Positions 39,466 to 39,545 of a stretch of 64,000 bases of DNA are shown here, piece after piece (positions within the stretch are counted from its first letter, which is position 1; each line of letters opens with the position of its first letter). The position numbers and the translations under genes are program-made. The notes below the pieces were generated by a model. It searched no databases. It had not been told where the DNA came from and was given only the letters and a program-made list of their open reading frames with translations. The stretch is from Escherichia coli 042 (lineage in GTDB: Bacteria; Pseudomonadota; Gammaproteobacteria; Enterobacterales; Enterobacteriaceae), in the NCBI RefSeq assembly GCF_000027125.1, contig NC_017626.1. One strand, given 5' to 3'.

Positions 39466-39545
39466 CTGTGCGCACAGATTAAAATCATGTGTGCGCACAT
39501 GTCAATACTTAACATCTCATTTTTTTTGCTGTATTGTGTGCGCCC
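39466..39545. promoter_or_regulatory. operator-like palindromes TGTGCGCACA (two perfect copies, one degenerate) in divergent promoter region
   Basis: CTGTGCGCACAG at 39466-39477, ATGTGTGCGCACAT at 39487-39500, TGTGTGCGCC at 39536-39545. Confidence 0.55.

Follow-up and report, generated by a model that had tools for sequence, protein, structure and literature searches.

How is the replication operon of an integrated phage satellite kept silent? The question is raised by a short intergenic region of Escherichia coli 042, which lies within a 64,000-nucleotide stretch of contig NC_017626.1 (below, the window means this whole stretch). A first-pass annotation, made from the letters alone, had seen two perfect copies and one degenerate copy of a 10-bp palindrome between a leftward operon and a rightward gene encoding a small RHH-like protein, and had read them as a repressor-operator switch.

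The satellite and its divergent control region

The region belongs to a satellite of ~15 kb (~27.7-42.9 kb) that interrupts the large-terminase gene of a lambdoid prophage, which also carries lysis genes, HNH and TerS. The prophage TerL is split into an N-terminal fragment (~42950-43983) and a C-terminal fragment (ORF 26981-27706), and the same insertion was seen in an Stx2e prophage (locus L001). The satellite might have contributed the 5' portion of a hybrid TerL, but this was ruled out, as its own TerL (28233-29894) is complete and just 33% identical to the prophage fragment. The minus strand of the satellite encodes an integrase, two AlpA-type proteins, BRO-N, an Icd-like protein, small ORFs, DUF4222, primase, SSB and PerC, followed downstream of PerC, on the same strand, by capsid, protease, portal, connector, HNH, TerS and the satellite TerL. 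Judged by this gene order and by the split TerL, the element is a capsid-forming, helper-embedded PICI, a configuration that has been described (10.1101/2022.09.08.507074, PMC10111431). Repeats of GCAATACAC lie near both satellite ends. In the prophage, Rfam matches above the gathering threshold (47753-47942, 52552-52727, 59909-59960 and 48642-48891) were to STnc100, the sok antitoxin RNA, DicF and two tRNAs.

The genes that flank the control region are those that the first-pass annotation had described, a minus-strand operon of small genes, primase, SSB and PerC on the left and the plus-strand gene of a 65-residue protein (39574-39771) on the right. The first gene of the leftward operon encodes the Icd-like protein (39165-39368, minus strand), a homologue of P4 Kil (NF033153, E 1.4e-19). 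The gene of the 65-residue protein is preceded at 7 nt by a GAGG ribosome-binding site, and together with a conserved ORF for a basic protein of 62 residues (orf62, 39814-40002, plus strand, phrog_21027) it makes up the whole plus-strand gene content of the satellite's left half. The two genes are probably co-transcribed. Beyond them, at 40193-40225 on the plus strand, lies a strong intrinsic terminator for the rightward transcript, GGCGCTCCG-GCAA-CGGGGCGC followed by TTTTTGTTTTT, which acts rightward only, no terminator being read there on the minus strand.

Between the divergent genes the two perfect palindromes and the degenerate one were confirmed; the cluster stands as first reported, and its earlier coordinates proved to be one base off. 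Two exact copies of TGTGCGCACA occupy 39467-39476 (O1) and 39490-39499 (O2), and a copy with one mismatch, TGTGCGCCCA, occupies 39537-39546 (O3). The distance is 23 bp from O1 to O2 and 47 bp from O2 to O3, and an inverted repeat with 13-nt arms (I2) spans both O1 and O2. In the whole window the exact sequence occurs three times, compared with 0.12 occurrences expected from dinucleotide-preserving shuffles, and none of 100 shuffles contained three or more. When up to one mismatch was allowed, the window-wide count was five versus 3.1 expected, a non-significant excess, and thus the real signal is the presence of three sites within 80 bp together with their conservation in relatives. The third exact copy (56703-56712) is probably a chance occurrence: it stands alone, with no partner site, inside an ORF of the prophage early region (56375-57352, minus strand).

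All three sites overlap core elements of two predicted divergent promoters. The leftward, PLE-like promoter (39478-39505, minus strand) has the -35 hexamer TTGACA (39505-39500), a 16-nt spacer and the -10 hexamer TTTAAT (39483-39478), which as read from the sequence are a perfect and a five-of-six match to consensus, respectively; an alternative -10, TAATCT, would give an 18-nt spacer. On the minus strand the arrangement reads TTGACA-TGTGCGCACA-CATGAT-TTTAAT-C-TGTGCGCACA, such that O2 forms the first 10 bp of the spacer beside the -35 and O1 begins one base downstream of the -10 and covers the predicted start. A simple promoter scan missed this promoter because the scan demands A at position 2 of the -10. 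The same scan found the rightward promoter of the 65-residue protein gene (39509-39537, plus strand; -35 TTAACA, 17-nt spacer, -10 TATTGT). The -35 hexamers of the two promoters stand back to back with 3 bp between them. O3 begins on the final base of the rightward -10 and extends over the predicted start, and is degenerate in the window and in several other lineages. It is probably an autoregulatory site.

The leftward transcript would begin with a structured leader (39369-39466, minus strand; fold z-score -3.85). The part of it that is kept in relatives (39369-39443) forms two hairpins, the second of which presents or frames the ribosome-binding site, and 9 of the 13 predicted pairs show compensatory changes. 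The unpaired stretch between the hairpins is conserved as CUAACCAcAACG. Of 5426 complete E. coli genomes, 1511 have a match to the leader stretch.

The 65-residue protein and its cognate sites

The 65-residue protein is a member of the YlcI/YnfO family, with a score of 59 bits against NCBIfam NF041551 (cutoff 30, E 3.5e-16) and a match to Pfam DUF3950 (PF13132, E 1.6e-6). It has many homologues in the Enterobacterales, and the uncharacterised ylcI (DLP12) and ynfO (Qin) genes of the K-12 prophages belong to the same NCBIfam and Pfam family. Searches of the PDB with the sequence and with its profile returned nothing meaningful. The monomer model consists of two helices after a disordered N-terminus, and Foldseek found no fold match when given this model. 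A tethered-dimer model matched RHH dimers, and this was the sole modelling route that gave RHH matches; confidence in the model was modest (pLDDT 63, with no beta-strand called by DSSP). The dimer model supports assignment of the protein to the strand-helix-helix, intertwined-dimer RHH fold, as a predicted Arc/Mnt-like repressor. Using hhalign, AKKNIRFPHELIDGIDA was aligned to residues 8-24 of Arc, PQFNLRWPREVLDLVRK, with E 0.008, a likeness at the motif level only and of weak statistics; that to Mnt, also at the motif level only, had E 0.11, and the comparison with CopG gave nothing. The strand motif NIRFPxEL resembles both Arc and Mnt. Arc Q9, N11 and R13 contact bases, and by analogy K12, N14 and R16 of the 65-residue protein may be their counterparts, a correspondence that we treat as a lead. 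R16 is invariant, and residues 12 and 14, which stand just before the invariant IRFP, are the positions that covary with the sites.

The comparison with relatives covered 31 loci obtained by scanning species-representative genomes, 8 from an exact protein look-up and 4 from E. coli. Every locus for which neighbouring genes were listed had a satellite context, with a primase, AlpA, integrase, Bro-N or P4 epsilon-like gene nearby. Three sites placed on the -35, -10 and +1 elements of both promoters were present in ~38 satellite loci of the Enterobacterales and Orbales. Nearly all of the loci follow a common plan, in which one site abuts GTCAA, a second lies 23 bp on and the third comes after the rightward -10; abutment on GTCAA, the -35 as seen on the plus strand, holds for 31 of the 37 tabulated loci. 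The leftward -35 (TTGACR) and the rightward -10 (GTATAG or GTATTG) are likewise conserved. An exact copy of the palindrome takes the O3 position in Rahnella (L004 and L005), and a type-matched copy takes it in other lineages. Loci of the window type (E. coli, Rahnella, Xenorhabdus and Pectobacterium) have invariant sites, -35 and -10 between diverged spacers, and thereby give a phylogenetic footprint. Conservation of the palindrome in relatives had been named by the first-pass annotation as a check on its reading; what is kept in the ~38 loci is the layout, and the site sequence varies by lineage. A blastn search of the control region against a phage collection gave no match.

Three of the relatives, in Pantoea (L009), Xenorhabdus vietnamensis (L025) and the EcCICFT073 island, have direct repeats of a non-palindromic 12-mer in place of O1 and O2. 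In EcCICFT073 (L045, 14474-14853) a gene for a 59-residue protein of the YlcI/YnfO family, at 14474-14653, is divergent from an Icd-like operon. Two copies of GGTGTGGCCCAC, 23 bp apart, abut the -35, and after the -10 comes a third site, which is degenerate. An equivalent cassette lies at 3060-3290 of L033, from an EcCIEDL933-like element next to roxA in E. coli O157:H7 F6667. This cassette contains an unannotated gene (3115-3288) for a 57-residue Arc-like RHH protein, in place of which PGAP calls a pseudogene on the opposite strand, and has the palindrome core GGTAATTACCAT twice, with the first occurrence lengthened to ATGGTAATTACCAT. Among PHROGs, the small protein of the O157 element matched one of Arc-like repressors.

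Within a locus the sites agree with one another, and between lineages their sequence changes together with residues 12 and 14 of the protein. Proteins with KKN at residues 12-14 accompany TGTGCGCACA in E. coli, Rahnella and Xenorhabdus. TKG accompanies GTGCAyAwACAC in 7 of 8 loci from several genera (the exception being L041), and YKG goes with TGTTTAAACA in Xenorhabdus, Dickeya and Salmonella and with TGTGTAAACA in Serratia. KKH is found with sites of the form ..ACCCAC in three genera, xKK with GGCCAC or CCCCAC, and RKD or GKE, which have D or E at residue 14, with TGTCCGyACA in Gilliamella, Orbus and an E. coli element. Loci that share residues 12 and 14 differ on average at 2.0 of 12 site positions, versus 4.5 for the rest. 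No permutation in 20,000 gave covariation as extreme as that observed, in a test that ignores shared ancestry, gene and sites being inherited together. Two genomes, those of Serratia sp. Ag1 (L003 and L015) and Xenorhabdus kozodoii (L019 and L022), each hold two satellites with different RHH and operator types, as separate immunity groups would predict, in a sample of these two genomes only.

Natural cassette swaps are stronger evidence for the pairing than the permutation test. The window, L034 and the O157 element L033 are near-identical in both flanks, and the block between (39444-39775 in the window), which contains just the sites and the small RHH gene, is exchanged as one piece. Between the O157 element and EcCICFT073, AlpA identity reaches 94%, the small proteins are unrelated and the sites differ (ATGGTAATTACCAT in the former, GGTGTGGCCCAC in the latter). 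Conversely, L001 has the cassette of the window base for base together with a primase that is unrelated beyond its first 146 residues. The swaps and the dissociation from AlpA and primase therefore indicate that the sites track the small protein, rather than AlpA, the replication protein or the host: regulator and sites change together. Among the 5426 complete E. coli genomes, only 68 contain at least 80% of the stretch that includes the cassette, and the 1511 that match some part of it do so mostly in the leader.

A P4-like frame and the proposed regulation

Satellite P4 has its early promoter PLE within eta, of which kil forms the nested C-terminal gene, and owes its immunity to the CI RNA; mRNA initiated at the late promoter further upstream is translated into Eta and escapes being terminated (PMC10111431). 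One NCBIfam model matches both the Icd-like protein of the window and the C-terminus of P4 Eta/Kil, in the latter at residues 144-191. Members of this family (39165-39368 in the window) are labelled 'transcriptional repressor' in phrog_6196 and phrog_1743, and the P4 RefSeq entry reads 'cI gene product'. The repressor label looks like a carry-over that predates the attribution of P4 immunity to RNA (PMC10111431).

The window also has an eta-like frame. In the Kil frame the minus strand is open for 360 codons (39168-40247), a span that overlaps the RHH gene and orf62 in antisense and takes in all three operators; the remaining two frames of that strand stay open for just 15 and 4 codons. From its TTG the frame has 357 codons (39165-40238, minus strand). 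Its translation in the window is uncertain because TTG is the sole start and a stop codon separates the frame from bro. In EcCICFT073 the corresponding frame (L045, 13752-15053) runs for 433 codons from just after alpA, with an ATG and a Bro-N remnant, and in several genera a ribosome-binding site and an ATG mark the start of the frame, which encodes a conserved peptide, MAHKTKA or MTGKTKA. Across the RHH gene the eta-like frame is open in 24 of 33 loci and closed in ~9. The 190 nt that separate the RHH start from kil were free of stops in one frame of the minus strand in 30 of 34 loci versus 2.2 expected, and the stop totals of the control region in the three minus-strand frames were 7, 140 and 227. 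Resampling of synonymous codons in the RHH genes, meant to reveal selection on the antisense frame, gave probabilities of an open frame of 0.04-0.7 per gene, values that carry no information because the codon pool was drawn from the genes themselves. As far as the reading frames tell, these satellites have nested genes of the eta/kil type, with the early promoter inside the eta-like frame.

The Rfam C4 and isrK models, which detect the CI and seqA RNAs in P4, found no such RNA in six related loci or in the window, where matches near the control region were considered up to E 1, and these elements thus gave no sign of a P4-type CI/seqA immunity RNA. Weak Rfam matches to mir-27 and sau-6072 were set aside as chance; that to sau-6072 incidentally marked a terminator. 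The position of the CI RNA immunity of P4 is, we conclude, taken in these satellites by the RHH cassette, which is embedded in an eta/kil-like pair and encoded on the other strand.

The positions of the sites on the promoters, the covariation, the cassette swaps and the match of the dimer model to RHH proteins all support the repressor-operator reading, and the three TGTGCGCACA-type sites are probably the operators of the adjacent 65-residue RHH protein. The bound protein would occlude RNA polymerase at the leftward promoter by way of O1 and O2, and would limit its own synthesis through O3. As a maintenance or immunity repressor, it would hold off in the integrated satellite the operon of kil, small ORFs, primase and SSB, including the toxic Kil-like gene. 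By analogy with Arc, K12, N14 and R16 of the beta-strand would read the bases, residues 12 and 14 would choose the site variant, and differences at these two residues would create distinct immunity types. Binding could involve one dimer per site of 10-12 bp or two dimers on 6-bp half-sites. The latter is the mode of the omega repressor.

How the repressor might be overcome is suggested by work on AlpA, which is required and sufficient for induction of EcCICFT073; helper induction acts at AlpA, and transcription of alpA is helper-activated and self-activating (PMC6092414). By analogy with P4, whose PLL transcripts are insensitive to CI, we tentatively suggest, while holding it open to considerable doubt, that the helper acts by the AlpA route: read-through from the alpA promoter would run leftward across the cassette, be translated as the eta-like frame and be insensitive to the repressor. 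Such a transcript would be antisense to the repressor gene and would lower repressor synthesis as well. Other conceivable routes of induction are an anti-repressor, for which BRO-N could serve (PHROGs that carry the label anti-repressor include the satellite's BRO-N protein), or binding of the RHH protein by a protein of the helper, as with SaPI Stl.

Other readings of the sites must be weighed against the proposal that they are operators of the RHH protein. In P22 immI the RHH protein Arc acts transiently to turn the early operon down and Mnt is the maintenance repressor, and given a strand motif that resembles Arc as well as Mnt, the 65-residue protein might bind the same sites as a transient Cro- or Arc-like regulator after entry or induction. 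We consider this role unlikely, as a divergent gene with its own promoter and a weaker autoregulatory site is the usual layout of a maintenance repressor, and neither a second repressor candidate nor a CI-type RNA is present. Sites in the spacer and at +1 could in principle also serve an activator, although one of an unusual type. A different binder altogether (AlpA, BRO-N, the PerC-like protein or a host factor), with the 65-residue protein doing something else, would have the attraction that no regulator of these islands other than AlpA has been demonstrated by experiment (PMC6092414), that relatives of BRO-N can bind DNA (PMC10111431) and that DUF3950 is without an assigned function in the sources searched. 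This seems quite improbable to us. Nearly identical AlpA proteins (94%) occur with wholly different sites and RHH proteins, the swapped block holds the sites and the RHH gene only, and Dickeya L042 keeps sites and gene with no alpA or bro called within its 2.5-kb flank; a host factor is unlikely because elements in one host species carry different site types.

It is very improbable that the palindromes act in RNA, as an O1/O2 hairpin, a weak terminator or a processing site in leftward read-through transcripts. The direct repeats of non-palindromic 12-mers in L009, L025 and EcCICFT073 cannot pair with each other, a transcript from the leftward promoter itself would hold only O1, and the fixed register with -35 and -10, as well as the third site at the opposite promoter, fit recognition in DNA. 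These points stand against the terminator-like hairpin that the scan called on the minus strand (39501-39486, followed by ATTTTAATCT) and the inverted repeat I2 that covers both sites. The repeats could also be iterons for the satellite primase or initiator, comparable with the 8-bp type 1 repeats of P4 ori/crr, an idea to which we give hardly any credence. The P4 control region does have short repeated ori motifs and some of the site variants start with GGTG, but an identical control region and RHH gene are found with a replication protein unrelated beyond its first 146 residues, there are three sites only, each on a promoter element, and PICI origins, as published, are located 3' of the replication gene (PMC6092414).

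Relation to known immunity systems and implications

RHH repressors with operators that overlap promoters are classical. In P22 immI the RHH repressors Mnt and Arc have operators overlapping Pant and Pmnt, with one 21-bp operator, and ant is the gene controlled. The present system differs in that the 65-residue protein belongs to DUF3950/YlcI-YnfO rather than to the Arc Pfam family, with similarity that is not significant beyond the motif, and in that three sites, 23 and 47 bp apart, would govern a satellite kil-primase operon. The likeness to P4 lies in the Kil homologue, the early promoter inside a longer frame that ends in kil, the alpA/vis homologue upstream and the primase downstream. However, P4 immunity, with the CI RNA and seqA/seqC, depends on an RNA repressor that causes premature termination, whereas here there is a protein gene on the opposite strand and DNA operators on the promoter.

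As with the master repressors Stl/Rpr of Gram-positive PICIs (SaPIs), the putative regulator of a phage-inducible island is divergent from the island's replication/packaging operon. The Stl proteins, which are larger and of the helix-turn-helix type, have no relation in sequence or fold to the 65-residue RHH protein. Moreover, Stl is removed by binding a helper protein, whereas the documented helper input of the satellite is transcription of alpA. The divergent-regulator layout has been reported absent from Gram-negative PICIs, which the founding PICI paper described as unidirectionally transcribed and lacking a clear global repressor (PMC6092414). As its sequence reads, EcCICFT073 nevertheless carries the RHH-operator module. 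In the literature that we searched, which did not include subscription journals, there was no function for DUF3950, YlcI or YnfO and no RHH regulator or such repressor of PICIs. Nor did that literature hold a paper describing the EcCICFT073 and O157 cassettes, the EcCICFT073 gene being annotated by RefSeq.

The module is thus a candidate for the missing repressor of Gram-negative PICIs. A broader generalisation is conceivable, although we would not rely on it: Gram-negative PICIs, capsid-forming PICIs and many P4-like satellites may share a cassette-exchangeable protein immunity, in which a DUF3950 or Arc-like RHH protein and three operators replace the CI RNA, lie antisense in a translated eta-like gene, use a two-residue code and are bypassed by AlpA read-through. 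Were this so, the operators would be promoter, operator and coding sequence at once. The link to P4 eta/kil would mean that RNA-based and protein-based immunity have been exchanged at the same position. If confirmed, the repressor-operator module would account for the silence of replication and of the toxic Kil-like gene and would define immunity types among co-resident satellites. It would also give DUF3950, and with it ylcI and ynfO, a function, and would provide compact orthogonal repressor-operator pairs with a readable two-residue specificity code.
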